From: Bacteroidota bacterium | GTDB lineage: Bacteria > Bacteroidota > Bacteroidia > Chitinophagales > Saprospiraceae | NCBI GenBank assembly: GCA_029781095.1 | Contig: JAKOXM010000302.1 | Span: forward strand, 1 to 63,633 | Length of the DNA stretch: 63,633 bases | Direction of reading: 5' to 3' | Shown: positions 7,898-37,134 of the stretch, piece by piece | Position numbering within the stretch: position 1 is the first letter of the stretch | Layout of the letters: each line of letters opens with the position of its first letter | Position numbers and translations under genes: made by a program | Notes under the pieces: generated by a model | The model's input: the letters and a program-made list of their open reading frames with translations, nothing else | Database searches by the model: none | What the model was told of the DNA's origin: nothing

Positions 7898-8527
7898 ATG
7901 CAATCAGTAAAGAACATCATATTCGACTTCGGAAACGTCCTTTTCGACCTCGACCTGCCATCCATCGAACGCCAATTCAGACAACATTTCGGAGAACAAT
8001 TCGAAGCTGCCCGTGCAAAATTCCGGCGCGACCGGCTGTTTGAACTTTATGAAACCGGCGGACTCAGCACGGAAGAATTTGTAGATAGCCTCCGTTTTGC
8101 GGCTGATCCCCCGCTCCCGGGGGAAAAGATCGTCTCCGCCTGGAACTCTATTTTTATCAGCATGCCGAAAGAACGGTTTGATATGCTGCTCCGGCTGCGC
8201 CAACGCTATAAAGTGTTCCTGCTCAGCAATATAAACGACCTTCACGCGTCCTGGATCGATGCGTATATGGTGCAGGAACACGGCATACAGGATTTTCAGA
8301 CGCGCTATTTCGACGCGGTCTACTACTCGCACCTGATCCGGCTGCGCAAACCCGACCGCGAAATTTACGAGTACGCCCTGGCCGACGCCGAACTTGTACC
8401 CGAAGAAACCGTTTTTTTCGACGACCTGGAAATAAATATAGCGGCGGCCAAACAGGTTGGCATTCAGGGGATTCTGCATCCGCCTGGCAAGGAAATCAGG
8501 GACGTCGTGGAGGCTTCATTGTTGTGA
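7898..8527 (+). CDS. HAD-superfamily hydrolase (subfamily IA-like)
   Basis: HAD motif I IIFDFGNVLFDLD, motif II LLSN, and C-terminal FFDD. The ATG at 7898 was chosen because the longer ORF from 7334 is antisense to the E2 gene. Confidence 0.8.
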   Translation: MQSVKNIIFDFGNVLFDLDLPSIERQFRQHFGEQFEAARAKFRRDRLFELYETGGLSTEEFVDSLRFAADPPLPGEKIVSAWNSIFISMPKERFDMLLRLRQRYKVFLLSNINDLHASWIDAYMVQEHGIQDFQTRYFDAVYYSHLIRLRKPDREIYEYALADAELVPEETVFFDDLEINIAAAKQVGIQGILHPPGKEIRDVVEASLL

Positions 8528-8826
8528 TTTCTTCATTGCTATGATTGCCGCATTGTTCTGCTGGTGCATTGCCACATTGGGAGTGTTTATTTTTTTTCAC
8601 CCCGGACCCCTGAAGGGGAGTATATCACAAAAATCTAAATAATTGGTTTATTTTCAATGAATTAAGTATTCAACGAAATGTACTCCCCTTCAGGGGTCGG
8701 GAGTGGAAAAGGAGAATTGACACAGATTTCTGAACGCCCTCGCCACATTTGCTACTCGTGGGAGCAGATTGGTGTCAATAAAACAATCCAGGCAATGAAG
8801 CAATCACAACTCACAGGCAATCCCAA
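8516..8826. repeat. About 310 bp nested palindromic element between convergent genes (CATTG-rich outer arms, GC hairpin inner arms)
   Basis: Inner arms are cccggacccctgaaggggagta (8601-8622) and tactccccttcaggggtcggg (8681-8701). Each arm is itself self-complementary (cccctgaagggg). Outer arms at about 8516-8580 and 8770-8826 are rich in cattg/caatg units (gttgtgatttcttcattgctatgattg versus the reverse complement of caatccaggcaatgaagcaatcacaac). Confidence 0.7.
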
Positions 8827-9602
8827 TCGTACAACACCCGGGAAAAATCCCGGGCCACCAGGTCTTTTTCCCGGATGAAAAAATGCCCGACACCCATATC
8901 GCCCCACATGAGATCCATGAGCTGGTCGGAATCGAGTTGGAAAAGAAGCAGCATGGGGTCTTCGGCCCGGCGTGGGTCGTCCTGGGTAAAGTATGCGTAA
9001 CCGCCGATTTTGTGTCCCTGCGGACGTACAGCCTTGCCGAAATCATCCATCACATCCCATTCCTTTGCCCCGAATTGCTGAAAAAAATCGGCGCCGAAGC
9101 GCTGGTAGAACCGGTAATCGGTCATGGCTGCCACCTCTTCGGCGAGTTCGAATGTAAGAGGGTATGTTTCATCCGGATGGTGGGGCAGCAAATCATCGTA
9201 GTCGCGCAGCATTGCCGGCGGGGCCTGCAGAACGGATTCATCCTGAATCACTTCCGCATGGTACACGACCCGAAATGTATCCGGATTTTCTCCGTCGTCG
9301 AAATCCATGCCGTAGAGGTCGTCGTCGTTGATAAAAAACTGTACGATGCCCTGCGAGGGGAAGGGCGTAAGCGAAGGCATTTCGCCAAAATTGAGTTGGG
9401 CAAGGAAAAAGAGCTCCCGTCCGTCCGGTGCGGTGGGCCATACAGCACTTTTAGGCAGGTAAGGCTGGCCGCCAACCTTGCTTTCCCATGGCTTTGTCTG
9501 GCGCGAGGGATGGGCGGTGGCCCGGATGAACGGTAGCTGGGTTTGGAGCAGCCCTTCGCGGAAGGGTTCCATTGCGGTCGGGAGGGAAAGTTGAATTGAC
9601 AT
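8811..9602 (-). CDS. DUF1963 (YwqG-like) domain-containing protein
   Basis: Patterns SKVGGQPYLP...WP, HKIGGYAYFTQDDP and LLLFQLDSD are typical of the family. Confidence 0.65.
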   Translation of the reverse strand: MSIQLSLPTAMEPFREGLLQTQLPFIRATAHPSRQTKPWESKVGGQPYLPKSAVWPTAPDGRELFFLAQLNFGEMPSLTPFPSQGIVQFFINDDDLYGMDFDDGENPDTFRVVYHAEVIQDESVLQAPPAMLRDYDDLLPHHPDETYPLTFELAEEVAAMTDYRFYQRFGADFFQQFGAKEWDVMDDFGKAVRPQGHKIGGYAYFTQDDPRRAEDPMLLLFQLDSDQLMDLMWGDMGVGHFFIREKDLVARDFSRVLYDWDCL

Positions 9603-9638
9603 GCTGCAAACTTACGAAAGTAAAGCCTTCCATGTAAC

Positions 9639-9698
9639 GCCAACCTCCGGTTGGCCAACGAATGTTTTCATTCTCTGACGAGCCAACCGGAGGCTGGC
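9639..9698 (-). terminator. Twin-hairpin or long inverted repeat directly after the ybeY stop
   Basis: gccaacctccggttggc (9639-9655) and gccaaccggaggctggc (9682-9698) are inverted copies with one mismatch. Each arm is also self-complementary (gccaacc/ggttggc). Confidence 0.5.
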
Positions 9699-9699
9699 G

Positions 9700-10152
9700 T
9701 TACAGGGGAAGTTTCGTCAGATAAAAATCTTCCTTATTCCGCATAGCCGCCTCATCTTCAGGTGTTTTGTCCTTGTAGCCTGCCATGTGCAGCACACCGT
9801 GTACCATCACACGGCAAAGTTCGTGATGGAACGAAACACGGTTTGTTTCGGCATTTTCGGCCACCCTCTCCGAACTGATATAAATTTCGCCCTGCATCCG
9901 GGCGTCGTCGCTGTAGTCGAATGTGATGATATCGGTGTAATAGTCGTGGTCGAGAAACTCGACGTTGATGCCGCGGAGGTGCTCGTCGGAGCAGAAAATG
10001 TAGCCGATTTCCCAAATGGGCTTGCCTTCCGCTTCGGCTACCGACAGGAGCCATGCCTGCAGCGATTGTTCGTCCGGAAGCTCGAACGCGACGTCTTCAA
10101 AGAAGAAAGAAATGGATTGTTCCGGTTGTTCGGGCGATTCCGGGAAAATCAT
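9700..10152 (-). CDS. ybeY: rRNA maturation endoribonuclease YbeY
   Basis: Zinc-binding motif HGVLHMAGYKD near the C-terminus, and a size of 150 aa. Confidence 0.9.
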   Translation of the reverse strand: MIFPESPEQPEQSISFFFEDVAFELPDEQSLQAWLLSVAEAEGKPIWEIGYIFCSDEHLRGINVEFLDHDYYTDIITFDYSDDARMQGEIYISSERVAENAETNRVSFHHELCRVMVHGVLHMAGYKDKTPEDEAAMRNKEDFYLTKLPL

Positions 10153-10163
10153 GACGGGTCGAT

Positions 10164-10198
10164 AAAAAAACCTCCGGAGTTTTTCAAAACTCCGGAGG
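10164..10198 (-). terminator. Rho-independent terminator of the upstream minus-strand kinase-like gene
   Basis: cctccggagtttt pairs with aaaactccggagg over a 13-bp stem. It is followed on the minus strand by ttttttt (the complement of 10164-10170). Confidence 0.7.
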
Positions 10199-10225
10199 CT
10201 CGATCAAAAAACAATCTTGAGAAAT

Positions 10226-10633
10226 TCAATCAATTTTAAAACGCATTTCAACCGTACTGCCGTTGCGCGTAAACCTGCATTCGTCGCTCAGATGACGCAT
10301 GAGGAAAAGGCCGCGGCCGCCGCATTTTTCGATGCATTCGAGGCTTGTGGGATCGGGTACATTGGTTGGGTCGAAGCCGGGACCTTCATCGGAAACACGA
10401 ATGGACAAGGCATCTTTCTGACGGCGTAAAGAAATGGAAACGCATTTGTTGCCGTCGGCCTGGTTGCCATGCAAAATTGCGTTGGTAACGGCTTCTGTAA
10501 GGCTTACTAAAATGTTCCCGTGGACGTTGGGGGAAAGGTTGTATCGGGTGGCTACATCATGTACAAATGGTTCTACTTTGCATAAATTGTTGGGGTCGGA
10601 GGGGAGAGTTAAATTTGTGTGTAAATCGCTCAT
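10226..10633 (-). CDS. HATPase_c-type ATP-binding protein (RsbW/SpoIIAB-like anti-sigma serine kinase family)
   Basis: N-box EAVTNAILHGN, G1 DEGPGFD, and G2 GGRGLFLM. The ATG at 10633 gives the usual size of about 135 aa, and the ORF track extends to 10738. Confidence 0.7.
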   Translation of the reverse strand: MSDLHTNLTLPSDPNNLCKVEPFVHDVATRYNLSPNVHGNILVSLTEAVTNAILHGNQADGNKCVSISLRRQKDALSIRVSDEGPGFDPTNVPDPTSLECIEKCGGRGLFLMRHLSDECRFTRNGSTVEMRFKID

Positions 10634-11040
10634 TCGCCAATTTTTGTTAAAAAATCTGACTGCTCGGAATACGCTGTTCGATTGATTCATCGGGGTTAGG
10701 ATCGGTGCCGGGAAGTTTTTGGATAGCGTCACAGTCAAATAACCACAGTTAATTAATGGGTTAACAGGATTAACGGCAAGAGGATTATAACAGCCGTAGC
10801 ATGCGAATGTTTTGGGGGTGTTCGTCTCGAAATTCGATGCAATTTAAGATTTTGTTAATACCCGGCGCAAGGGGGTGTGGAAAAAAACTTGACTTTTCTG
10901 CTCTAAAAGGGCTTGTTTAGACTGAATACAAGTGATTTGGTCACTTTTTCCACAAAATTTTTTCTTAAAAAATTATCTGATGCCCCGAAAAGCAGCCGTC
11001 GGACGGTAAAAATCGTTCGGAAGGCGGCGGCATGAGCGGT

Positions 11041-12489
11041 TTAAAACTCGGCATTTCCCGGGAAACGGGGGAATGCAATCACGTCGCGTATGTTGGTCAT
11101 GCCGGTTACGAACAGCACCAGACGTTCGAAGCCGAGGCCAAATCCCGCGTGGGGGCATGAACCGAAACGGCGGGTATCGAGATACCAGTACAGTTCTTTT
11201 TCAGGGATATGCATCTCCTGCATGCGTTGCACGAGCCGGTCGTAGCGCTCTTCGCGCTGCGAACCGCCGACGATCTCGCCGATGCCCGGAAACAGGATAT
11301 CCATCGCCGACACAGTCGGGCCGGGCACGCCGTCTTTCGGGTCGTCCTGCCGCATATAAAAGGCTTTGATAACAGCCGGGTAGTTGGTCAGGATAACGGG
11401 CTTTTTAAAATGTTTTTCCACGAGGTAGCGCTCGTGTTCGCTTTGCAGATCGGTGCCCCAGCCTTCCACGGGAAACTGGAATTTTCCTTTCTTGTTCGGG
11501 TTGGAGTTTTTCAGGATGTCGATGGCCTCGGTATAGGTAAGCCGCACAAACTGGTTATCGGTCACGAAGCGCAGTTTTTCGGTCAGCGCCATTTCGCTGC
11601 GCTGGTCCTGCGGCTTGCTTTTTTCTTCCTCGATCAGGCGGTCTTCCAGTATTTTCAGATCATCGGCACAGTGCTCCAGCGCGTAGCGAATGACGTACTG
11701 GAGCATATCTTCCGCGAGGTTCATGTTGTCGGTGAGGTCATTGAAAGCAACTTCGGGTTCGATCATCCAGAATTCGGCGAGGTGGCGCGTAGTGTTGGAA
11801 TTTTCCGCCCGGAAAGTAGGTCCAAACGTGTACACTTCGCCGAGCGCCATGGCGGCCAGTTCGGCTTCCAGTTGGCCAGACACAGTCAGGTTGGTGGAGC
11901 GTTTGAAAAAGTCTTTGTCAAAATCAATTTCACCGGTTTCGGTGCGGGGGGCGTTTTCGAGGGGGAGCGTGGTCACGCGGAACATTTCCCCGGCGCCTTC
12001 GGCGTCGCTGGCAGTGATGATGGGGGTATGCTGATAAAAGAATCCCTTGTCGTTGAAAAACTTGTGGATGGCAAATGCCAGTGCGTGGCGAATGCGGAAT
12101 ACGGCTGCAAAAGTATTCGTGCGAAAGCGCAGGTGGGCTTGTTCGCGCAGAAATTCAAGCGTTTGCTTCTTGGGCTGCAGCGGGAACTCTTCAGGGTTGC
12201 AATCGCCGTAGATGGTGATCTCCGAGGCTTTCAGTTCCACTTTTTGTCCCTTGCCCTGCGACTCGACCAGGACGCCGCGGGCGCCGATGGCTGCGCCGAA
12301 CCTGATACGTTCGAGCGTAGCGGCGTCGAATTGTTCAAAGTCAACCACCACTTGCAGGTTGTGCGGCGTGGAGCCGTCGTTGAGAGCGATAAACTGGTTG
12401 TTGCGGAAGGCCTTTACCCAGCCTTTTACCAATATGTCAGAGCCTGTGGGTTCCGTGCGGAGGAGTTCGGCGATTTTCGTGCGGCGCAT
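11041..12489 (-). CDS. asnS: Asparagine--tRNA ligase
   Basis: OB-fold N-domain plus class II motifs [21 protein letters not shown] and [15 protein letters not shown]. Confidence 0.95.
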
Positions 12490-13358: not shown

Positions 13359-14663
13359 ATACCTTTTCGGATCAAAGGCAGCCATCCCGATACTTGCCGG
13401 TTTGCCACCGGCCAGCTCCGCTACCAGTTTCCCGGTTCCTGCGCCCATACTGAGACCGAGCATGGCATGCCCGGTAGCGATGATCATGTTGCCGGTCTTT
13501 TTGGCAAAGCCGATATAAGGCATGCCGTCGGCTGAAACGGGCCGGAAACCGAACCACACTTTTTTCCGGATATCTTTTTTCAGTTTGTCAAAATCGGCGA
13601 GCTCACGAAAAACGGGATCGTCCTCGTAACCTGGCAGGAACTTGGGCACGGCCTCGAGGATACCCTGCACGCGGGGAAATAAAATGCGGTCGTTGAGCGC
13701 ACCGATTTCCATGGTGCTGCCGATGCGAAGGCTCCCGGCCCAGGGGGTCAGCGCCACTTTTGCTTCCAGCAAAATACAGGGATATCGAAGCAACTGGCGC
13801 GGGGTATCCACGGTCATCGAATAGCCTTTGCCGGGCATCAGCGGGATATATTCACCGGTCATTTTGGCAACCTTCGGCGACCAGGAACCGGCGGCCAGCA
13901 CGACCAGATCGGACGTAAGCGTATTGACGGCCTCACCCGAATCGGGACTGCCAATACGATATCCGACCGATATGATTTTTCCGTTTTCTTTCTGAAAATC
14001 AACGACTTCTGCATTTTTCAGGATTTTCACGCCGCGTTTTTCGAGCAGGGCCGGCAGCTGTTTCATCAGCGTATTGGGATGCAAATGCGCATCGTCTTTG
14101 AACCAGACGCCGCCGCGCACGTCGGGCCTGAGATCGGGTTCAAGCGACTGCGATTGCTCTCTGTCGAGGATTTCCACTTTCAAGCCCAGGTCTTCGGCCA
14201 TGCGGGCGTTTTCAAGTTCTTCCGCCTCCTTTTTGGCCGTTTGATAGTACATGATGCAGCCGTCGTCTCTGTATTCGAACGACATAAGACCGCTTTTTTG
14301 CCAATCTGCAGTGAGGTGTTTGGACAGCAACAACAGATCAACCAGCGGACGGGCGCTGCGTTCCACGTGCTTTTGCGTGGAGGCCCGGACGAACTTCAGA
14401 CCCCAGTCGATGAGGTCCCAACGCAGAGACGGGCGTACGTAGAAAGGACTTTTTTGCCGGAACATCCACAGGATACCCTGGCTGACAATACCCGGCGCCG
14501 CGAGCGGCACAAAATGCGAAGGCGACAGGTAACCCATGTTGCCGAAGGAGCAATTATCCGTCAAATCGCCTTTTTCAAGCACGGTGACGTCCCATCCGTC
14601 TTCGTTCAGAAAATACGCGGTGCTGAGGCCAATAATACCGCCGCCAATGATGGTTGCTTTCAT
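13356..14663 (-). CDS. FAD-dependent oxidoreductase (DAO / D-amino-acid dehydrogenase-like)
   Basis: Dinucleotide fold MKATIIGGGIIGLSTAYFL...VLEK. The ATG at 14663 is preferred over the ORF-track start at 14768. Confidence 0.8.
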   Translation of the reverse strand: MKATIIGGGIIGLSTAYFLNEDGWDVTVLEKGDLTDNCSFGNMGYLSPSHFVPLAAPGIVSQGILWMFRQKSPFYVRPSLRWDLIDWGLKFVRASTQKHVERSARPLVDLLLLSKHLTADWQKSGLMSFEYRDDGCIMYYQTAKKEAEELENARMAEDLGLKVEILDREQSQSLEPDLRPDVRGGVWFKDDAHLHPNTLMKQLPALLEKRGVKILKNAEVVDFQKENGKIISVGYRIGSPDSGEAVNTLTSDLVVLAAGSWSPKVAKMTGEYIPLMPGKGYSMTVDTPRQLLRYPCILLEAKVALTPWAGSLRIGSTMEIGALNDRILFPRVQGILEAVPKFLPGYEDDPVFRELADFDKLKKDIRKKVWFGFRPVSADGMPYIGFAKKTGNMIIATGHAMLGLSMGAGTGKLVAELAGGKPASIGMAAFDPKRY

Positions 14664-14695
14664 GTTTTTGTTGTTTTTGTCGGTCGTCACGACGC

Positions 14696-15997
14696 TCATT
14701 GACGAAATAACGCTACAAACCTGCCTTCCGCTACAGCCGCCAATGGCCGGAATGAAGAACCGTCCCATTCTCCAAACAACGCGAGCGGGTGGCCGCCGCC
14801 GAGTGCGACAAGCCGCCAGCCGGCGTCGTCCGGGATATTCAGCGGCAAAGACTTTCCATTTTTATCCATAAAAACGAACCGGCTGCCCGTCCGGCACGCA
14901 GTCGCTGCGCTGAAAACTGCCGGAAAATACGGCAACCAGGGCTGCTTTGCCAATGCTGTTGCGTAAGCGTTTGCAAAAGTGTCAAAATCTTCAAATCCGT
15001 GCAGTTTTTCCACCTTTTTTGGCAGTTCCGTCCAGTCATCCAGCAGCAGCGCGCGTTGTGCGAAGGCGGAAGGGTAGTAGGCCAGTGTGCCTTGCTGGAT
15101 ACTTCCCGGCATAAAACCGGGGGGGAAGCCTGCGCCGCCGAAGGAAAAATCCAGCAAAAGAGCCATGCGCCCCGATTTGCCGCCGGCCAGCCAGGTGCGC
15201 CGCAGAGCCAGTTTGTCTTCCAGCGGCTCTTCCAGTTGGCCGACGATTGCCCATACGTCATGCTGCCGTTCCCCGGATGTCAGCACGTTTTCTTTTTTTG
15301 CGGCTATGCCGACAAAATTCTGAAGATCGAAAGCCAGGTCGCGGGGCAGCGTATCCCGTTTGCGAAAGGCGCGCACTGCCAGGTAGCATTCGGCGAGACC
15401 GCCAGCCGTTTTGGCAGCCCAGTCGGGGTCGGAAGCGGGAATTTGTCCGAGCAGGCGCAAACTGCGGCTGAGACCCGGCATGGAAGCGTCTGCCATGCGC
15501 GCCGCAATGTTTTCCCACCAGCGCGGGTCCTCCGAAACGACGGTGGCCAGTCCGCGCCGTATGGTGTCGAGCAGCCAGGCTTCGAGGTCTTCAAAGCCGT
15601 TGGCGGCGCGCTCGAGCCGTTCAAAGCGACGCTGTGCCTGCGTCGCTACCCGGTCTTCGGGCGGGCCGGTCTGCCGGCCACGGCCTGCAGGGAGACCGGA
15701 GATCAATGCCGTGGCCCAATCCGGCAGCGCATCGATGCGGGTAAAACAAGATTCGCCTTCACGCGCATACATGGCACTCAGCGCCAGCGCATGTACGCAG
15801 GGTTTCGGGAAAAAAGGGCAGGAGCAAAAAAGCGCACGGGATGTCAGGTCCATTGCCACCGAATGGAAGCGGCCGTCGGCGGCTGGTATTCGGGAAAAAA
15901 TAATTTTCTCAAACATGAATCGCTCCGGGAAAAAAACGGGCCGGGCAAGCAGGTTTGCCCGGGTGCCGGTTTCCGTTTTTTCGCTGAGTTTTGACAC
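14696..15997 (-). CDS. SWIM zinc-finger family protein
   Basis: CxC-x(n)-CxH signature CSCPFFPKPCVHALAL near the N-terminus, followed by a long alpha-helical, Ala/Leu/Arg-rich remainder. Confidence 0.65.
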   Translation of the reverse strand: MSKLSEKTETGTRANLLARPVFFPERFMFEKIIFSRIPAADGRFHSVAMDLTSRALFCSCPFFPKPCVHALALSAMYAREGESCFTRIDALPDWATALISGLPAGRGRQTGPPEDRVATQAQRRFERLERAANGFEDLEAWLLDTIRRGLATVVSEDPRWWENIAARMADASMPGLSRSLRLLGQIPASDPDWAAKTAGGLAECYLAVRAFRKRDTLPRDLAFDLQNFVGIAAKKENVLTSGERQHDVWAIVGQLEEPLEDKLALRRTWLAGGKSGRMALLLDFSFGGAGFPPGFMPGSIQQGTLAYYPSAFAQRALLLDDWTELPKKVEKLHGFEDFDTFANAYATALAKQPWLPYFPAVFSAATACRTGSRFVFMDKNGKSLPLNIPDDAGWRLVALGGGHPLALFGEWDGSSFRPLAAVAEGRFVALFRQ

Positions 15998-28866: not shown

Positions 28867-29937
28867 TTATACGATGCGGCTTTCTTTGGCAGACAGCGAA
28901 TGCGCCGACTTCCGGAACGCCTTGTAAACGCCTTTTCCGAAGCTGGAACCACTGAATACCTCCGTTTTTGCGCGCTCTTTTTGCGCTTCGGCCGGCAGCT
29001 GACGGAAATCACGGCATTTGTCGGAACAACAACCTTCGTATTTCTCCCGGCATTCGTCGCACTGAATAAAGAGAATATGGCAATAGTCGTTGGCGCAGTT
29101 GGTGTGCGAGTCGGCCGGCCGACCACACTGGTGGCAGTGGGCGATCACATCCGGGCCAATCCGTTCGCCAAGCCGCTCGTCGAAGACGAAATTTTTTCCT
29201 AAAAACTTGTTTTTCAGGCTTTTGGCCTGCACTTGCCGGGCGTATTCGATAATGCCGCCTTCCAGCTGAAATACGTTGTCAAAACCCCGGTATTTGAGGT
29301 AAGCGCTCGCTTTTTCGCAGCGGATTCCGCCGGTACAGTACATCAGGATATTTTTGTCTTTCCGGTCGGCCAGCATGTCGGCCACCAGGGGCAGCTCTTC
29401 CCGGAAAGTGGCTACATCGGGGGTGATGGCGGATTCAAAATGCCCGACTTCGCTTTCGTAGTGGTTGCGCATGTCCACCACGATGGTATCGGGCGATTCG
29501 GAAAGGCGGTTCCATGCTTCGGCGTCGAGGTGAATACCGGTTTGCGACGGGTCGAAGGCCGGATCGTCGATGCCGTCGGCCACAATTTTGTCGCGGACCT
29601 TGATAATGAGCGTGAAAAACGATTTTCCGTCGTCGTCTACGGCGATATTGAGGCGAAGGTTTCTGAAAAAAGGAATTTCGTCCATCGCGGCTTTGAAGGC
29701 TTCAAAACCGGACGCCGGCACGGAAATCTGTGCATTGACGCCCTCGCCGGCCACGTAAATACGGCCCAGAACGCCGAGGTTTTGGTACATTACATACAAC
29801 TCGTCGCGGAATTGCTGCGGATCGGCGAGTTGAACATATTTGTAATAGGAAAGCGTGATGCGGGGTTCGTTGCTCCGGCGCAGCCGTTCCTTGAGCTCGC
29901 GCCGGTTGACCCGGTTGTGAAGATGTTTGCCCATCAT
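28867..29937 (-). CDS. trhO: Rhodanese-domain tRNA uridine(34) hydroxylase (UPF0176/YceA family)
   Basis: Rhodanese active-site loop [13 protein letters not shown] and a C-terminal Cys cluster CHQCGRP...CANDYC...CDEC. Confidence 0.8.
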
Positions 29938-30001: not shown

Positions 30002-33000
30002 TCAATCTCCTTCCTTTTTTGCTTCGTTCAGTTTCAAAACATCTTTTCGGATCAGGCTGACTTTCCGTGCATTTTCAGGACTGAGTTTCAGCGTTTTTTC
30101 TATTTCCTTGAAGTCATCTTCAAAGACTTCCCGGAAGGTGGGGAAACGATTGTCTACCCATGCTCTTTCCAGATTTTCCGTGTAAAATGCCTTGGCTTTT
30201 TGATAGTCCTGTTCGGTTTTGCCGGAAAGCAGCATTGCGATGGCTTTATTGGAAATGATGCCGTTTTTTTCTTCATTTTCCGAGGGCACGGCCAGCCCCG
30301 CGTCTGCGGCTTCCAGCCCGGCACGGAAATCGCCGCTTAATATGACGTACCAGGAATAATTCCAGTAGGCGTTGTACAATTTTGTACGCGTGCGCTCCGA
30401 AAGCGGCTCCAGATCATAGGCTTTTTTTGTCAATTCGACTTGAGACAATGAATAAATGCTCGCTTCTTTATAGTTCTGGCTTTGTACAAAATGATCGGAC
30501 CGTGTGCTGAACAGGCTGGCATAATCAAGCCAGTCGTCCACAGTCGGATTTATTTTAGTCAATTTTCGGTAGAGGGAGTCGGTAGTTGCGAATAAATTGT
30601 TGTCTTCCGGCTGCTCCAGGCAACGGTTATAAAAATAATCGGCACAGTCGCGAATCTCTTCCATGTTGGATGAAAGCAAACACTCTTCGCCATCGTATTC
30701 AATATCGAACTTTTTTCGTTGATCGGCGGAAATGCGCGGGATCACTTTGCCGCGGGCGATCTCGCTGATCTGGTTGTGTATCAGTACCGGCCCGGTACGT
30801 TTGCCGAATACGACAATGCTGTCACTGGACAAAAATGCGGCATTCACAATTTCATCGTCATCAAGGCTGAACTGTTGCAGGCAATAAACCGCCTTTTTTT
30901 CAGCCGTGGCATCCCATAAAGATGCCCTGCCGCTGCCATCGATCGTGAGCAAATACCGGTCGTCGGGTGAAAAAACGATCTTTTGTTCGAAAGTTGAACC
31001 ACTAAGGGTTTTTATGGGCTTGCGTGTTCGGGTATCCCAAATTCTTACACCGCTCCAGCTACCGCCCGACGCGAACCGATCCTCATTATTTGAAAAGGCG
31101 ATGCTTTGAATCTCCCATATCTCCTTTATCCGTGATACTGCCGAATCGCCCGTACAATCCCACAGATAATCGTAGAATGTATAATTGCTGTCTTTAACGC
31201 TCAACAGCGCATATTGACCGGTTTGGGAAAATCTGGCAGCGGTGATGGGTAACCCGAAATTATGCTCATATACCTTTTCCAGACTGAAATCATTGTTCTT
31301 GCGATATATCCGCATATTTCCCCGGTCATCGGCGGCAAGCAGTTTTTGTTCATTTGCGGAAAAATGAACGGAAATAACCGAACCGGCAAATCGATCGAGC
31401 GTAACCGTATCGCGGGTATACGGGCCGATTCGGCCTAATTTGCCGTCCCTGCAACCAACGATGAAATACCGCTCGCCCGGCTGGACGATGTCGAAAGCGG
31501 TGATGCTGTCGCTTTTATCATAAGTATCCGCCTTATAGCGTATGGTATGAATGATCGAGTCCGGCAGTTGCCAAACGTTAAGTTGAAAGTCATCATCCAG
31601 CGTTGCCACCTTCTTTTCTTTTCCTGTTCTCAGGGGCAGGCCTTGCGTGATGGAACCAAGGTGCCCGCGCAAGGTTTTTATGACGGATAATTTTTTCATG
31701 TTCCACAGACGCGCCCGGCCGTCCGCCCCGGCCGACACCATCCGCGCGGTATTGCCGAGGCGGCGTATGTCATAGATATAGCCCAAATGTCCCGAATAGG
31801 TCAGCAATGAACTTCCGTTTGCCCAGGACTGAATGATTCCCAGGGAAGTGCCTGTTATGATGGTATCGCCGGTAAAGGAAAAATCTGCGGTATAGAAATC
31901 GCCGTATCCGGCATTGTATGGCAGCGAGAACAGCGAATCTCCTGCCGCGCTGAATACCTGCAAGGGCCCCTGACCATAACAGACCAGGAATTTTCTGCCG
32001 TCGCGGGAAAACCTCACGCAATTCACAGCGCCGGGAAACCGCAGCGTTTTGGTTAACCTGCCGTTGTAGGGGCTGATTTGCACGGTGGCGTCCCAACTGC
32101 CGGTAATGACGGTCTTCCCGTCAGACGACCAGTCTACCGTGCTGACGTATCCCTTGTGGGAAATGGTATTGACGAGATTACCCTCCAAAGTCCAGATTTT
32201 GGCGGTATTATCGTAGCTGCCGGTAATGAACTTGCTACCGTCCGGGGAGAAAGCCAGGGAGCGGACCGAAGAGTTGTGTTGGCCTTCCCAGTTGTGGAGG
32301 AGAAGGCCGTTTCGATCGAACAGCAGGAATATGCTGTTCCATAAACCGGCAATAATATGCTGCCCGTCTGCGGACCAGTCGACGGCAATTACCTGGTCGG
32401 AGGCTTTGTAGGTCCAGACGACTTTTCCGGTTTTTAAATTCCAGATTTTCAACATTTTATCCAATCCTCCTGTCACGATAAGACTGTCGCCGGGCCCGTT
32501 GGCGACGCTGACGATACCTTTATGGTGCGGCAGGTTTTCGAACAACTGGCTGTTTTCGAGCGGCCAGAAGCGGAGATTGCCCTCATAATCACCGGTTACG
32601 ATCAGGCTGTCTTTGGCGATAATCGCCGCTGACCGCCCGAAAATATCGTTATCCCAGTGCATCGTGGCCACACAATCGCCGTTTCGGTTCCAGATTTTCA
32701 GCGAACGGTCGGTACTCGCAGTAAAGACGAGGTCGCTGTTTTTGAAAAAACCGACCTGTCTCACATGATTGTCGTGACCTTTTAGTGTACGGATCACTTT
32801 TCGCCGTTTCAGATCCCAGATTTTGGCGGTGTTATCCGTTGCGCCGGTTATGAAGTAATCGCCGTCCTGGGAAAATGCAGCACAGATGACACTTTGGGTG
32901 TGTCCCGGATATTCCACTATTGCATTATTCCGGAGATCGATGAGCAAAACCTGAAAAGTACGAAGGCCCACCAGGACGTGATGCCCGTCTGGCGCAAATG

Positions 33001-33862
33001 CCACGCAATTGGGCATGGCTTCATTGGGTATTGAAATTATCTGCCGGATATGGAAGCCGCTGTCGATTTTTGCTACGACGACAGAAGAATTAAGCGCAGC
33101 AACGACCACGTCGCCCTCCGGAGAAATGGCGGCATCGCTAATCGGTTCGCCCAGATTAAGGGTTGCAAGGGTATCTCCTGCCAGATTCCACAGGACTAAT
33201 TCTCCGTTACTGTCTCCCGTAAGGAGTTTATCGCTGTTTGAGGAAAAAACAATGGCATTGACATATCCTGAGCTTGTATAATCTTCCGCCAGGTCAACCC
33301 AATCGCCTTTGGAACGGTCGTACAATTTGAAAGGATCGGACTGGCAACTTACGGCAATATAGCGATCGTCGGGTGAAGCGCTTAATGCCAATATCTTGCA
33401 CTTGCAATCTATGCTTACGCTGTAATATTTAGCATCCTTTTTCTCCAGTAATTTGCGGCGTATCCCGACCGCGAGCTCATTTTTATTCTTTGTAAAGCGG
33501 GAGGCTTCGTTGGCCAGCTGGAGGGCCAGGGTAGGATTCGCATCGGCGTTGTCCAGGGCTTTATTGGTGAGTTCGGCAATTTTTGCCTGTAATTTGAACT
33601 CAACGTTCTGTTTATCAATGTTGTTCTCTTCGACCTTGATGAGCGAGTCAAGCCGCAGGGATTCTTTTTCCGGCATGTCAAGGCATGCGCCGGCTGCCTC
33701 AAAATAATAAAGTGCCGCTTTATAATCGGCGCTTACGGTATCGGCGACAAGCCCCTTGCTCAGGAAGAACGTATAGCAATTCTCGGTACCGGCTGTCTGC
33801 GATTCAGCGCGATAACAGGCAAGGACGGACAGGACGGCAAGCAGGGTGATTTTTGTTCTCAT
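30002..33862 (-). CDS. Exported (lipobox) WD40-repeat protein with TPR-like N- and C-terminal helical regions
   Basis: [16 protein letters not shown] lipobox. About 20 WD40 units are visible, for example [96 protein letters not shown] and [28 protein letters not shown]. The last 270 aa or so are helical. Confidence 0.85.
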
Positions 33863-33869
33863 TGTAAAA

Positions 33870-35948
33870 TCATTTTTGGGTGTTGTGACATTTGCCCCAT
33901 ATCCGGTCGCGCTCCACGCTGGTTTTTTCGGGCAGTACCGCCAGAATCGGGTCTATTTTTTCCTGGATGATCCGGCTTGCCCAGCCGCAATCCTGGCCTT
34001 TCTCCAAAAAGGTGTTGGCGCGGCGGAGCAGGTCTTTCAGGTCTTCCCGCATATCGCGTTCACAGAGTTCAATCCCCTGTTTGGCTTTCTCAACGTCGAT
34101 GTCGAGTGCCTTTGCCTGCCCGTATAGCTTGTGTGCTTCGATATAATTGCGTTCGGCGCGGTGATTTTCGGCAGAACTGATCAGTTGTTCGAATTTTTCA
34201 AATTTCACGGCGCCTTCCCGGCATTGCTCGATCAGCGCGTGCAATTCGGGCGCGTTGCGCCTGGGCGTATCGATTGCCAGGCATTGAGCAAACTCGTTCA
34301 TGGCGCCTTTGTATTGCTTTTGGTCGAGGTAGAGCTTTCCCTGCTGGTAGTGCTGCACGTAGTTTTGCGCCAGAATGGTATCCTTGGCAGACTGGAGCTC
34401 AATAGCGAGGCCTTTCGCGCTGTCGCGCTGCAATTGCGCCACCCGCATCAGCGAGTCGGATGCCTGCCGGGCAATCTGAAGATCGATCTGTTGCTTTTGC
34501 AGGTCCCGTTTTTGGAAAAAAGCAAGCCCGGCCAATCCCAGTGCGATAACTGCGAGCCCGAATCCGGCAATGGAGCGATAGAAGTAAGCAACCCTTTCCC
34601 GCCGGATGCGTTCCTGCCGCTCGGCTTCCGCTTCACGCCGCCGGTTTTCGATCGCTTCAGCCGTTTGTGCTTTTTCCAGCTCTTCCGCCACCCTCAGTTT
34701 TTTCGCGTCCAGGATGGGCTCGACCAGCGAATCGTGGCTTATCTCATACACAAAGCTGCCGCTCGGGTGCATGTCCACGCGCAGGAGGTGATGTTCATTG
34801 ACGAGCCTGGCCAGGGTTTGTGCCTCCACCTGGTAGTTATTCAGAATCTGGCCTTCGAAAAGGCTCAGCCTGCGGAGTTCCTGTTCGAAGATCATTCCGT
34901 CTTCTATCATAAACCGCACTTTGTGCTGATCTTCTTCAAGCAGGGAGGCGATTATGCTATCGTAATAATTTTTATATATGCTTTTGATGTCGCCCAGTTC
35001 GGCCAGTTGTATTTCCTGGCCTTCGCGCTGAACGAGGTTGTTTTCAACATATTGGCAAATGACCTGCAGCTGAGTGGTTTCAACCGGCTTGGTATTTTGC
35101 TCGGTCAGGAAGTTGAGAATGGCTTCGAGGGTATCGCCCGAATACCGGAAGGAGGGTGTGGCAAAAAGCCCCGGTTCGCTTGCCGGCCTTAAAATGGCTT
35201 CCTGTGCCTGCGCCCGGTTGAGGGGGTTCAGTTCATAGCGATTTTTCAGAATGTTCGAATAATAAGGGGCAATCCGTTCCAGCAGGCTCAGGCGGTCGGA
35301 GCGAATACCCAGAACGATTTTCAGGGGCAGCGACTGGTGTATGAAATTGATTTGTTCGGCCCCTTCCGGCGTGGATTTTATGGCCGGAAGGTTTTTGTAA
35401 AACATTTCCCTGAAAGGGGCGGGCATTTTATTGTCCAGCAAATCGGCAAACTGGCGGATAAATTCCTGCACTTCGGGCTCCGGATAAGAAAAAATCTCTT
35501 CGAACTGGTCGAACACGACCACCAGCCCGGGCAAGCTCGAACGTTGATGCCACTGGATGGATTTGAACAGTTGCCAAAGCGTTTGTTTCTCCGGATCCGG
35601 TTGTACGGTGGACAGGAATACCGTTTCCTGCTTGGTCGACGGGTCGGTGGAATAGAAGCGCAAATGCGCGAGGATGCCTTTCAGCGGGCTGGAATGCTCT
35701 TTTTGGCTATAGGCATAGAAGCGGGGAAAAAGAGCAATGAGGCCTGCTCCGGTGAATTTCGGAACGACACCTGCATTGAGCAGCGACGTTTTTCCGAGAC
35801 CCGATTTGCCGTGCAAGACAGTGAGGTCGTTTATACTGATGGTTTGGTACAGATTGACGATATCCAGTTCGCGGCCAAAGAAAACCCTGGATTGCTCTTT
35901 GGCGAATGGCTGCGAACCGGGATACCGCTTCAGTGGTTTGTTTTCCAT
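33870..35948 (-). CDS. STAND-class P-loop NTPase (nSTAND-like) with a single TM helix and TPR-like C-terminal region
   Basis: N-terminal signature YPGSQPFAKEQSRVFFGRE. Walker A is LHGKSGLGKTSLL (DNA 35787-35810) and Walker B is GLVVVFDQFEE, followed by LGIRSDRL. The TM helix is FYRSIAGFGLAVIALGLAGLAFF (DNA about 34515-34583). The 214-aa helical tail contains YKGAMNEFAQCLAID and YIEAHKLYGQAKALD. The ATG at 35948 is preferred over 36041, which overlaps the upstream gene. Confidence 0.75.
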   Translation of the reverse strand: MENKPLKRYPGSQPFAKEQSRVFFGRELDIVNLYQTISINDLTVLHGKSGLGKTSLLNAGVVPKFTGAGLIALFPRFYAYSQKEHSSPLKGILAHLRFYSTDPSTKQETVFLSTVQPDPEKQTLWQLFKSIQWHQRSSLPGLVVVFDQFEEIFSYPEPEVQEFIRQFADLLDNKMPAPFREMFYKNLPAIKSTPEGAEQINFIHQSLPLKIVLGIRSDRLSLLERIAPYYSNILKNRYELNPLNRAQAQEAILRPASEPGLFATPSFRYSGDTLEAILNFLTEQNTKPVETTQLQVICQYVENNLVQREGQEIQLAELGDIKSIYKNYYDSIIASLLEEDQHKVRFMIEDGMIFEQELRRLSLFEGQILNNYQVEAQTLARLVNEHHLLRVDMHPSGSFVYEISHDSLVEPILDAKKLRVAEELEKAQTAEAIENRRREAEAERQERIRRERVAYFYRSIAGFGLAVIALGLAGLAFFQKRDLQKQQIDLQIARQASDSLMRVAQLQRDSAKGLAIELQSAKDTILAQNYVQHYQQGKLYLDQKQYKGAMNEFAQCLAIDTPRRNAPELHALIEQCREGAVKFEKFEQLISSAENHRAERNYIEAHKLYGQAKALDIDVEKAKQGIELCERDMREDLKDLLRRANTFLEKGQDCGWASRIIQEKIDPILAVLPEKTSVERDRIWGKCHNTQK

Positions 35949-36003: not shown

Positions 36004-37134
36004 TCATTCCTGCGCAGGCCGGTTGCGCAGGTATTTGACAATATTGGAAAGCGAGCTGCGTATCAGGGCCATTTGTCTCGAATATGGATCGAAATCTATT
36101 TTGCCGAGGTTAAATTCGCGCTCAACGCCCGCAAGATTGCCTTCCTGCACAATGAGTTCCCCTTTGTCGATACCCCATCGGTCGGCCGCCTGAAGCAGTA
36201 GACTGATGGCCTCTTTCAATTCATCATTTCGTATGTGTTTTTCCACCTGATCGACCATCAGCCTTTTTATTTCTCCCGCATCCTGTATTCCGGCAGGTCC
36301 GGCGGGTCCGGGCTGGGCGGAGTGTTCGGATACCGATTTGTCCAGCTCTTTTATCAGCATCTCACTGTCTGCCTGCAGGACGATAAAAGTGGTGGAAAGC
36401 TTGTGCTCATTTTCAGGCTTCACAGGCGCGTCCTGCGTGAGAATGGAATAGTGCTCTTTTTTCGTATTCGTTCGGTCGTCTTTGTTGAGTTTGCGAATAA
36501 TAAGCGGCATATACCATTTGTCCAGATCGAAGCCGAGCAACATAAAGAATTTGGCTTCCTGCAGCACGAATTGCAGCGATACGGGCATTTGCATGTTATC
36601 GCTCAGCAGCGATACGAAAAACTTGAAAAAATCTTCATACGTAACGATCAGAGAATCCTGATTTCGGGCATCCCCGAACAGGTTGAAAAGATGCGTCACG
36701 TCGTCGGAAGATGTATTCGATGCGGGTGCATTGGGGTCTTTCGGGTGAAATTCGTGGGGAATTTTGAGGTTATCGAACGTTTTTTTCAGCATCAAATCCG
36801 GCGTGCAGGATATGATGGCCCTGAACGGAAGCCGGACGATCGTTTCATAAATTTCACCCGGTTCGAGGGACTGGTAATGTTCGGAAAGGTGCCAGCGGAG
36901 ATCCAGACTTCGCCCGGGATCGGGGTTTTTCAGGATAAAAAGATTATCGAAGTCATTGTCGATGTCTTTCAGCAGATCGGGCGCATTTTCTGAAAGGTAG
37001 TTCCGGACGCTGTCTCCCGCCGGAATTCCTTCCCGGGTGGTTCCAAAATGGGGTCCCAGAAAAAGAATAAATTTCTTCTCAAGGATATTTTTGGTGTGTT
37101 GCTTGATGAAGACGGAAATAGATTTGGTATCCAT
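36004..37134 (-). CDS. SIR2-fold-like (SIR2_2-like, apparently degenerate) protein with a C-terminal helical adaptor-like domain
   Basis: The block order resembles SIR2_2: KKFILFLGPHFG (versus lvlFlGAGvS), LPFRAIISCTPDLMLKKTF (versus viTTNYDdllE), THLFNLFGDARNQDSLIVTYEDF (versus vklHGs...lvlteedY), and FFMLLGFDLDKWYMPLIIRKL (versus lFlGySlsDpdl). A Pro/Gly linker follows, then a roughly 90-aa helical module ...IRNDELKEAISLLLQAADRW...GNLAGVEREFNLGKIDFDPYSRQMALIRSSLSNIV. Confidence 0.4.
   Translation of the reverse strand: MDTKSISVFIKQHTKNILEKKFILFLGPHFGTTREGIPAGDSVRNYLSENAPDLLKDIDNDFDNLFILKNPDPGRSLDLRWHLSEHYQSLEPGEIYETIVRLPFRAIISCTPDLMLKKTFDNLKIPHEFHPKDPNAPASNTSSDDVTHLFNLFGDARNQDSLIVTYEDFFKFFVSLLSDNMQMPVSLQFVLQEAKFFMLLGFDLDKWYMPLIIRKLNKDDRTNTKKEHYSILTQDAPVKPENEHKLSTTFIVLQADSEMLIKELDKSVSEHSAQPGPAGPAGIQDAGEIKRLMVDQVEKHIRNDELKEAISLLLQAADRWGIDKGELIVQEGNLAGVEREFNLGKIDFDPYSRQMALIRSSLSNIVKYLRNRPAQE

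Follow-up and report, generated by a model that had tools for sequence, protein, structure and literature searches.

A SIR2-fold protein without the catalytic asparagine and histidine and with a C-terminal EAD11 domain, encoded next to an nSTAND1 NTPase in Saprospiraceae

The stretch of DNA analyzed here (the window, 63,633 nucleotides of contig JAKOXM010000302.1 in assembly GCA_029781095.1, from a Bacteroidota bacterium of the family Saprospiraceae) contains on its reverse strand a gene for a protein of 376 amino acids in which a SIR2-type domain is joined to a small C-terminal domain of the EAD11 family. We use the name SIR2* for the first of these domains, meaning a SIR2_2-like domain devoid of the catalytic His. 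Directly downstream are a gene for a STAND NTPase of the nSTAND1 family and a gene for a WD40 protein, and the three genes together are called the trio below. The SIR2* domain resembles the bacterial SIR2 proteins that hydrolyze nicotinamide adenine dinucleotide (NAD+), such as ThsA and DSR2, and carries other residues at both of their catalytic positions, a condition shared by a large family of proteins. The features of the gene, numbered in the window and in the protein, are the following.

36004 to 37134, reverse strand: SIR2*-EAD11 gene including the stop codon, ATG start, 376 amino acids, with Pfam matches to SIR2_2 and EAD11
36319 to 37134, reverse strand: predicted SIR2-fold (Rossmann-type) domain, residues 1-272, from the secondary structure (DSSP) and confidence of the model, Foldseek and hhalign
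37042 to 37056, reverse strand: G27-P28-H29-F30-G31, in place of the GAGxS dinucleotide-binding loop (phmmer and hhalign alignments)
36796 to 36804, reverse strand: T111-P112-D113, T111 at the position of the catalytic Asn of TTNYD and D113 as its kept Asp (phmmer, hhalign)
36673 to 36684, reverse strand: N151-L152-F153-G154, F153 at the position of the catalytic His and N151 a conserved Asn specific of the family (phmmer, hhalign)
36511 to 36534, reverse strand: G201-F-D-L-D-K206-W207-Y208, family signature in place of the ThsA-type GFSFxDPN loop (conservation, phmmer, hhalign)
36280 to 36318, reverse strand: low-confidence linker rich in Pro and Gly, residues 273-285 (predicted local distance difference test, pLDDT, below 50 at 274-283)
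36022 to 36279, reverse strand: EAD11 four-helix bundle, residues 286-371 (Pfam EAD11, predicted helices)

Both domains were found above their gathering scores in Pfam. SIR2_2 (PF13289) matched residues 113-245 with E=6.4e-10 (bit score 39.7, cutoff 24.5) and EAD11 (PF19964) matched residues 295-369 with E=5.4e-10 (bit score 39.6, cutoff 26). A phmmer comparison against all the PDB chains retrieved ThsA proteins only (7uxt, 8wc0, 8bto, 6lhx), with single-sequence E-values from 6e-5 to 0.19, and in these alignments SCT111PD113 falls on TTN(112)YD, NLF153GD on KMH(152)GD and FLGPHFG on FAGAGLS. The register was the same when the profile of 29 members of the family was compared with the ThsA profile by hhalign (93% probability, E=3.4e-7). 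We also built an AlphaFold2 model on an alignment of 140 sequences (pLDDT 90.8, predicted template modelling score 0.76), whose best PDB match by Foldseek was ThsA 8btp (E=1.1e-10). The top matches, at E=1e-10 to 1e-7 and probability 1.00, were ThsA (6lhx, 7uxt), DSR2, KomC and Avs5, and the fold matches include the structures of ThsA with gcADPR (8bto, 8btp). The concurrence of phmmer, hhalign and Foldseek rules out a wrong alignment register. Judging from these comparisons the domain has a SIR2_2-type fold, and an earlier suggestion that it might not be SIR2 at all is refuted by the Pfam, profile-profile and fold comparisons alike.

In this register T111 stands at the position of N112 in BcThsA and N133 in DSR2, and F153 at that of H152 in BcThsA and H171 in DSR2. 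The catalytic Asn has therefore become Thr and the catalytic His has become Phe, while GAGxS has lost its second Gly and its Ser and the Asp of TTNYD is kept. This is what the earlier note on this DNA had proposed from an alignment made by eye, with SCTPD on TTNYD, NLFGD on KLHG and LGPHFG in place of the glycine-rich loop; the profile alignment gave the same correspondence and restored neither the Asn nor the His. Since the three features that characterize the NAD+ hydrolases (NADases) of the ThsA/DSR2 type, namely the Asn, the His and the GAGxS loop, all fail in the SIR2*-EAD11 protein, it should not be filed as one of them.

The substitutions are not a peculiarity of this protein. A HMMER profile scan of 1.84 billion cluster representatives gave 1,381 family matches with E≤1e-3, of which 887 had E≤1e-10 and 113 had E≤1e-30; most of the matches have 350-400 amino acids and span the whole profile. 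Word-indexed searches provided about eleven close relatives, of which the named ones are metagenome-assembled genomes of Saprospiraceae. C110, T111, D113 and F153 were invariant in the alignment of the eight closest homologues. We aligned 158 retrieved sequences to the hidden Markov model (HMM) of the family, with totals per column that vary from 149 to 158. Among the 158 members the His position was occupied by Phe in 116, Leu in 17, Tyr in 13, Met in 5 and other residues in 7, and by His in none of them. At the Asn position there was Ser in 69, Thr in 64 (Ser or Thr in 133/158) and Asn in 18. Other positions were nearly constant, such as G27 (147/149) and P28 (143/149) in a loop with the consensus LGPxF[G/A], D113 (153/157), N151 (146/157), G154 (157/157), G201 (155/155), W207 (154/155) and Y208 (146/155). 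Including S161, the residues conserved in at least 90% of the members are thus G27, P28, D113, N151, G154, S161, G201, W207 and Y208, with K206 reaching 79%. Neither a conserved His nor a second conserved acidic residue was detected anywhere in the family alignment, so that a His that has migrated or an alternative Asp or Glu is ruled out. Just before the LGP loop 130 of 157 members have a Cys (consensus KCVLFLGP), and a Phe is found at this place in the protein of the window (F22, 37069-37071) and in its two closest relatives.

When mapped on the secondary structure of the model, the conserved residues fell on the C-terminal end of a strand or directly behind it (strands 22-26, 106-109, 147-151 and 196-200), and in the modelled fold they would line the classical Rossmann/SIR2 ligand crevice. 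The sequence profile of the family (alignment A4, 29 members) did not detect any solved SIR2 structure by hmmsearch, and gave only unrelated helical proteins among the solved structures (best E=0.07), so that no solved structure of this clade was found. The ratio of non-synonymous to synonymous substitution rates (dN/dS) against the 87% identical orthologue at locus L025 was 0.075 over the complete gene; its SIR2 domain gave 0.054 and its EAD11 part 0.10, values similar to the 0.05-0.16 of the neighbouring housekeeping genes. Such a strong purifying selection indicates that the SIR2*-EAD11 protein is no relic. The loss of the catalytic residues is a trait of a large family, due neither to chance nor to decay.

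The C-terminal tail had been likened earlier to the effector-associated adaptor domains, and this was borne out, specifically for Pfam EAD11. It is small, C-terminal, non-enzymatic and all-alpha, as in the description of EAD11, with helices at residues 286-302, 306-320, 324-342 and 348-371 that have pLDDT values above 90 in the full-length model. The domain modelled in isolation also gave four helices (pLDDT 94.7). It is therefore an ordered helical bundle and not a disordered extension, preceded by the linker of residues 273-285 that is the fastest-evolving part of the protein. The label 'Death-like' was less fortunate. There are four helices instead of the six of the Death fold, and a Foldseek comparison of the isolated domain against the PDB found nothing significant (best E=0.9, designed helical bundles), with no Death, CARD, PYD or DED entry among its top 50 matches. 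In the profile-profile network of Kaur et al. 2021 (PMC8195603, supplementary file 1) EAD11 joins only itself, and with all this a Death-like fold of the tail is not supported. The same supplement places EAD11 at the C-terminus of LRR-AP-GTPase-COR proteins in Haliscomenobacter hydrossis, a saprospiracean. A second copy of EAD11 was not detected with the family HMM in the six-frame open reading frames (ORFs) of at least 50 amino acids of the 63.6-kb window (best other E=0.38), and the profiles of the nSTAND1 and WD40 orthologues gave hhalign probabilities below 1% against EAD11, confirming that the neighbouring NTPase has no matching adaptor copy, as was already noticed by eye.

The neighbouring genes, in the order of transcription, are described by three features.

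33870 to 35948, reverse strand: nSTAND1 STAND NTPase gene, 692 amino acids from ATG (Pfam nSTAND1 PF20703, E=3e-29)
34515 to 34574, reverse strand: predicted single transmembrane helix of nSTAND1, residues 459-478 (hydropathy scan, conservation)
30002 to 33862, reverse strand: WD40 protein, 1,286 amino acids, multi-propeller, with a predicted Sec-type signal peptide and a C-terminal helical region (Pfam WD40, E=1e-70)

The nSTAND1 gene starts 55 nucleotides downstream of the SIR2* stop codon, and the start codon of the WD40 gene is found only 7 nucleotides after the nSTAND1 stop. Both the Walker A motif (GKSGLGKT at residue 47) and the Walker B-like motif (VVVFDQFEE at residue 143, hhhhDQFEE) of the NTPase are intact. 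The ORF obtained mechanically extends upstream to a TTG at 36041, which would produce an overlap of 38 nucleotides with the SIR2* stop. The orthologue alignment indicates that the true start is the ATG at 35948, as the orthologues all begin a few residues before the invariant RYPG motif, which is part of an N-terminal RYPGxxPF segment. Actually, all the SIR2*-associated nSTAND1 proteins that we inspected begin from a few to about 20 residues before RYPG, with no N-terminal effector domain. After the transmembrane helix the NTPase has a helical tail of about 210 amino acids with conserved cysteines and a weak match to TPR_2 in Pfam. The signal peptide was predicted in the WD40 protein of the window and in four orthologues, and also in the homologue from Chitinophagales at locus L008 once its start was extended upstream. 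Residues 51-191 of the WD40 protein (33290-33712), its N-terminal helical region, gave a weak PADLOC match to CARF4--CARF_PDDEXK (E=4.7e-5). With this predicted topology the SIR2*-EAD11 protein and the NTPase would be cytoplasmic, and the tail of the NTPase (33870-34514) and the WD40 protein would be periplasmic. STAND systems do not usually have a sensor arm in the periplasm.

None of the known defence systems covered by PADLOC matches this locus. PADLOC recognized no system here and had nothing for nSTAND1; its ThsA and LmuA matches were weak and covered the SIR2 part only. NCBIfam gave no match for the SIR2* protein, and on these grounds a known defence system was ruled out. There is no TIR gene adjacent and the SIR2*-EAD11 protein does not contain a SLOG domain, so that it does not qualify as the ThsA of a Thoeris system either.

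The trio was found at the same place in six assemblies or contigs of Saprospiraceae, and in all six it adjoins the genes for an AhpC/TSA-thioredoxin protein, a protein of 218-220 amino acids, a 2-hydroxyacid dehydrogenase and a TonB-type receptor. The amino acid identity across the loci was 43-78% for these flanking genes, 37-40% for SIR2*, 40-46% for nSTAND1 and 30-36% for the WD40 protein, i.e. the trio diverges faster than its neighbours. The synteny is kept upstream and broken downstream. In the window (28867-29937) and in L025 the WD40 gene is followed by a UPF0176/rhodanese gene, and in L001, L003, L004 and L017 by a gene for 455 amino acids and an extracytoplasmic function (ECF) sigma factor. 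From the gene order, the trio is to be regarded as vertically inherited at a fixed locus. The fixed upstream flank, the lack of a PADLOC system and a dN/dS like that of the neighbours do not correspond to a mobile anti-phage defence island. Some distant relatives are found near AbiEii or near a diversity-generating retroelement.

We have also scanned the GTDB species genomes, using a single narrow pattern derived from the alignment of 29 sequences that under-samples the family, and obtained 13 loci, all in Bacteroidota; look-ups of distant members added further loci. An nSTAND1 gene follows directly after the SIR2* gene in every one of the 19 non-redundant loci that include downstream sequence. 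At a twentieth locus (L019, member P0046) both are on the same polypeptide, a protein of 1,158 amino acids (8001-11477) in which nSTAND1 is joined with two SIR2*-EAD11 units in tandem; its gene is located beside Peptidase_C14, CHAT, AAA and vWA genes. The C-terminal part of the NTPase varies widely, from the transmembrane helix and TPR with a separate WD40 protein (window and L008) to a fused WD40 (L024), an Lcl_C domain (L022) or long uncharacterized tails (L011-L018). In L021 (7450-12993) the gene after SIR2*-EAD11 codes for an nSTAND1 joined with an FGE-sulfatase domain (C-lectin-type), and bAvd and a reverse transcriptase come next, a diversity-generating retroelement that apparently targets the sensor of the SIR2*-linked NTPase. 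The partner of the SIR2* domain within the protein is also variable. TIR was found on SIR2* in P0061, P0068, P0070, P0144, P0159-P0168 and P0107, and CHAT in P0013, P0090, P0169 and P0170. The CHAT modules keep the His-Gly/Cys dyad and the TIR modules keep a C-x-Y-E motif, which by its sequence would be catalytic.

Furthermore, five-gene operons related to the one in the window were found in Chitinophaga, Mucilaginibacter, Flavihumibacter, Daejeonella and Ginsengibacter, with a CHAT protease of 281-291 amino acids encoded after the NTPase. The N-terminus of this protease is EAD11-like by the family HMM (E between 6e-7 and 1e-4 in five operons, and 0.044 in the remaining one of the six) and by hhalign (92.7%, E=4e-7), and the Pfam EAD11 model did not reach E=0.01 on these N-termini. 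According to the 'EAD principle' (Kaur et al. 2020, PMC7159879), the same small adaptor, or effector-associated domain (EAD), is carried by two proteins of one operon. These sister operons follow it, with EAD11 on SIR2* and an EAD11-like N-terminus on the CHAT protease. They open with a signal-peptide protein of 113 amino acids and a conserved protein of 250 amino acids (9170-9919 in L014, where the smaller one is at 8796-9137; alignment A5), and the same two genes are present in L011, L012, L015, L016 and L018. In L014, from Chitinophaga niastensis, the SIR2* gene is at 9935-11140 and the CHAT gene at 14496-15350. The 250-amino-acid protein is encoded where one would look for a substrate or a pore-former of the operonic CHAT protease. 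It had no match in Pfam, PADLOC or the PDB sequences, and hence no similarity to gasdermins there, and the 113-amino-acid protein had no match in Pfam or PADLOC.

Our preferred reading, to which we give about an even chance of being correct, is that SIR2* docks to or co-assembles with nSTAND1 without being a NADase of the ThsA type, and that EAD11 recruits partners tagged with EAD11. The lost catalytic apparatus, the purifying selection, the EAD principle in the sister operons, the predicted topology and the distribution of the domains speak for it. SIR2* is the constant element, always beside or fused to one clade of NTPases, and the modules attached to it are interchangeable, which is the behaviour of a coupling module and not of a variable effector. 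As the nSTAND1 proteins have no effector domain at the N-terminus, the upstream gene, coding for SIR2* and a variable partner, stands where a STAND protein split in two would have its N-terminal module. All the top structural neighbours (ThsA, KomBC, DSR2 and Avs5) form tetramers or helical filaments according to the titles of their PDB entries, and this was counted in favour of coupling. SIR2* could dock on, or oligomerize with, the effector-less N-terminus of nSTAND1, perhaps with the participation of a ligand or peptide in the crevice that has been kept (G27-P28, S/T111-P-D113, N151, G154, S161, G201 and K206-W207-Y208), and the EAD11 bundle of four helices would make homotypic contacts by which partners tagged with EAD11 are recruited. 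The NTPase would be anchored in the inner membrane by its single helix, with the helical/TPR tail on the periplasmic side; there the WD40 protein, which is co-transcribed and has a signal peptide, would reside as well. The input would then be probably extracytoplasmic and the output cytoplasmic. Comparative genomics favours in this way an inactive sensor or scaffold, one of the options raised by the earlier note; the absence of activity, the physical docking to nSTAND1, the identity of the EAD11 partners and the direction of the signalling are what we infer from these patterns.

There is precedent for a SIR2 domain with a proposed regulatory function in a similar company. A variant Sir2-like domain was first noted beside a STAND NTPase and TPRs in SAMD9/SAMD9L (PMC5445408). 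For the Sir2-like domain of SAMD9L no enzymatic activity has been reported and a regulatory or scaffolding function has been proposed, with the domain forming a dimer interface (bioRxiv 10.64898/2026.02.01.703102), which provides the precedent for an adaptor. The likeness to SIR2* is functional and architectural only, in that a variant Sir2-like domain is directly beside a STAND NTPase. SAMD9 and SAMD9L, STAND-like proteins with an antiviral function in animals, are eukaryotic single polypeptides whose effector is an AlbA domain, unlike the SIR2* system.

Several observations weigh against the coupling role. Conserved residues at the strand ends that canonically bind ligands look less like a pure scaffold than like a working pocket. 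No recognizable effector domain was found in the three genes of the window by Pfam, PADLOC or NCBIfam, and in the operons of the window and of its relatives with two or three genes, L008, L020 and L021, there is neither another protein with an obvious effector domain nor a second EAD11; if SIR2* were only an adaptor, the system of the window would have no effector in cis. In the Avs5 protein PaAvs5-1 the HG motif is replaced by NG and NAD+ is nonetheless hydrolyzed (PMC12931631), and the D112 that this protein requires has its counterpart here in D113. Lastly, EAD11 is found with our own EAD11 HMM on 128 of the 159 top SIR2* members, C-terminal in 127; this count is partly circular, and the profile used to rank the members included EAD11, so that the tallies of architectures lean towards SIR2*-EAD11.

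Some of these observations lead to a second explanation that we consider possible, albeit rather unlikely, in which SIR2* is still the effector, re-wired to act on NAD+, another nucleotide or a cofactor, or with other chemistry. Such an enzyme would use D113, N151, S161, K206 and Y208, with EAD11 as a tether, and would be switched on by the activation of nSTAND1 as in Avs5 or ThsA. The polar residues invariant in the family lie where the Rossmann strands end on their C-terminal side, in the canonical active-site crevice, and D113, the Asp of TTNYD, corresponds to the D112 that is essential in a PaAvs5-1 functional with NG (PMC12931631). SIR2*-EAD11 is also the sole effector candidate in the operons of the window, L008, L020 and L021, its gene is placed like the N-terminal effector module of a STAND protein that has been split, and the purifying selection is strong. 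However, the Asn (to Ser/Thr), the His (to Phe, Leu, Tyr or Met) and the GAGxS loop (to GPxx[G/A]) have been lost jointly, whereas PaAvs5-1 keeps its Asn, and the change of its N153 to Ala or Gln abolishes function (PMC12931631). No conserved His or second conserved acid is available in the family to replace them. Besides, a domain that is constant and repeatedly fused or EAD-linked to bona fide effectors (TIR, CHAT) is difficult to see as one effector more, and the protein with two tandem SIR2*-EAD11 units behind the NTPase points in the same direction.

The characterized SIR2 systems compare with SIR2* as follows. ThsA, DSR2 and KomC belong to the same Pfam family (PF13289), have the same fold and are the best Foldseek matches, and the SIR2_2 landmarks LP...D, xxxG, hhhT..DF and hhhhGF are kept in SIR2*. 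The latter differs from these NADases in the absence of the catalytic Asn, the His and the GAGxS loop, in a polypeptide with no SLOG, HEAT or other sensor and an EAD11 tail instead, and in a partner that is always nSTAND1. Avs5 (AVAST type 5, SIR2 with nSTAND3 and TPR) is also similar in having a SIR2-like module with a 'novel STAND' NTPase and repeat sensors, and its structure 9nc9 is among the Foldseek matches. In Avs5, however, the SIR2 module is fused N-terminally to the NTPase, keeps N110, D112 and E202 and is a demonstrated NADase (PMC12931631), whereas SIR2* is encoded by a separate gene, its Asn is also gone, and the NTPase is an nSTAND1 predicted to be anchored in the membrane.

SIR2* might alternatively be a receptor of small molecules that binds NAD+, ADP-ribose or a signal of the cyclic ADP-ribose type made by TIR, without turnover, and serves as an allosteric gate of nSTAND1 or of the attached effector, by analogy with the SLOG domain of ThsA and the SAVED and CARF sensors. 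We regard this as improbable. TIR domains of Thoeris systems make signals derived from NAD, and in sirtuins the Asp contacts the nicotinamide/ribose region of the substrate; the recurrent SIR2*-TIR fusions, the kept D113 and a conserved crevice without catalytic residues are all consistent with such a receptor. But the pyrophosphate-binding GAGxS loop is now GPxx[G/A], which makes canonical dinucleotide binding doubtful, and most members, including that of the window, have no TIR or cyclase in the operon. In addition, sensing in STAND systems is normally carried out by C-terminal repeats, here TPR and WD40. An artefact or relic (a wrong register, a fold other than SIR2 or a decaying pseudo-enzyme), to which the modest single-sequence E-values to ThsA and the failure of the A4 profile with the solved SIR2 structures might point, is highly improbable in view of the Pfam score above gathering, the hhalign and Foldseek results (E=1e-10) with a confident model, the more than 1,000 clusters with invariant motifs, a dN/dS of 0.05-0.08 and an operon kept in genomes with flanking genes of only 43-78% identity.

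Coming back to SIR2* as a coupling module, by analogy the closest counterparts of the SIR2*-EAD11 protein are the adaptors in the EAD-coupled NTPase systems that Kaur, Burroughs, Iyer and Aravind have reported (PMC7159879, PMC8195603), where both nSTAND1 and EAD11 were named. It differs from them in that the EAD11 of the window is unpaired within 63.6 kb, and in that the locus is syntenic and vertical, not sporadic. In these two papers, their supplements or the open-access literature we found no account of a SIR2 clade that lacks the His or is naturally inactive, nor of a system that pairs SIR2*-EAD11 with nSTAND1.

The coupling role can be taken further, into a version that we hold to be unlikely. 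The SIR2 fold would have been turned into a non-enzymatic, ASC-like adaptor, the obligate partner of nSTAND1 NTPases, and in the Saprospiraceae operon it would be the output arm, on the cytoplasmic side, of a trans-envelope and housekeeping-like pathway inherited vertically and not as a mobile phage-defence module. The secreted WD40 protein would sense a periplasmic or extracellular cue and signal via the TPR tail of the membrane-anchored NTPase, and SIR2*-EAD11 would polymerize and recruit EAD11-tagged executioners, e.g. caspase-like CHAT proteases encoded elsewhere. In the inflammasome with ASC and in the bacterial gasdermin systems with CARD-like domains, an NTPase of the STAND/NLR type is tied to a caspase-like protease by helical homotypic domains. 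The adaptor proposed here is unlike those in being a SIR2 fold with a four-helix EAD11 and not a Death-fold protein, and the window contains no protease.

SIR2 domains in bacterial immunity are usually taken as executioners that deplete NAD+, and pipelines annotate the protein studied here as a 'SIR2 family protein'. Many predicted 'SIR2 effectors' may not be NADases, and this would alter the effector counts in censuses of defence systems. The predicted membrane anchor of the NTPase and the predicted secretion of the WD40 protein suggest that STAND systems may also monitor the cell envelope and not only the cytoplasm. If the coupling role is true, the inflammasome-like adaptor logic (NLR, adaptor and caspase) would be extended to a new fold, and these bacteria would provide a tractable model for the unexplained Sir2-like domain of human SAMD9/SAMD9L.

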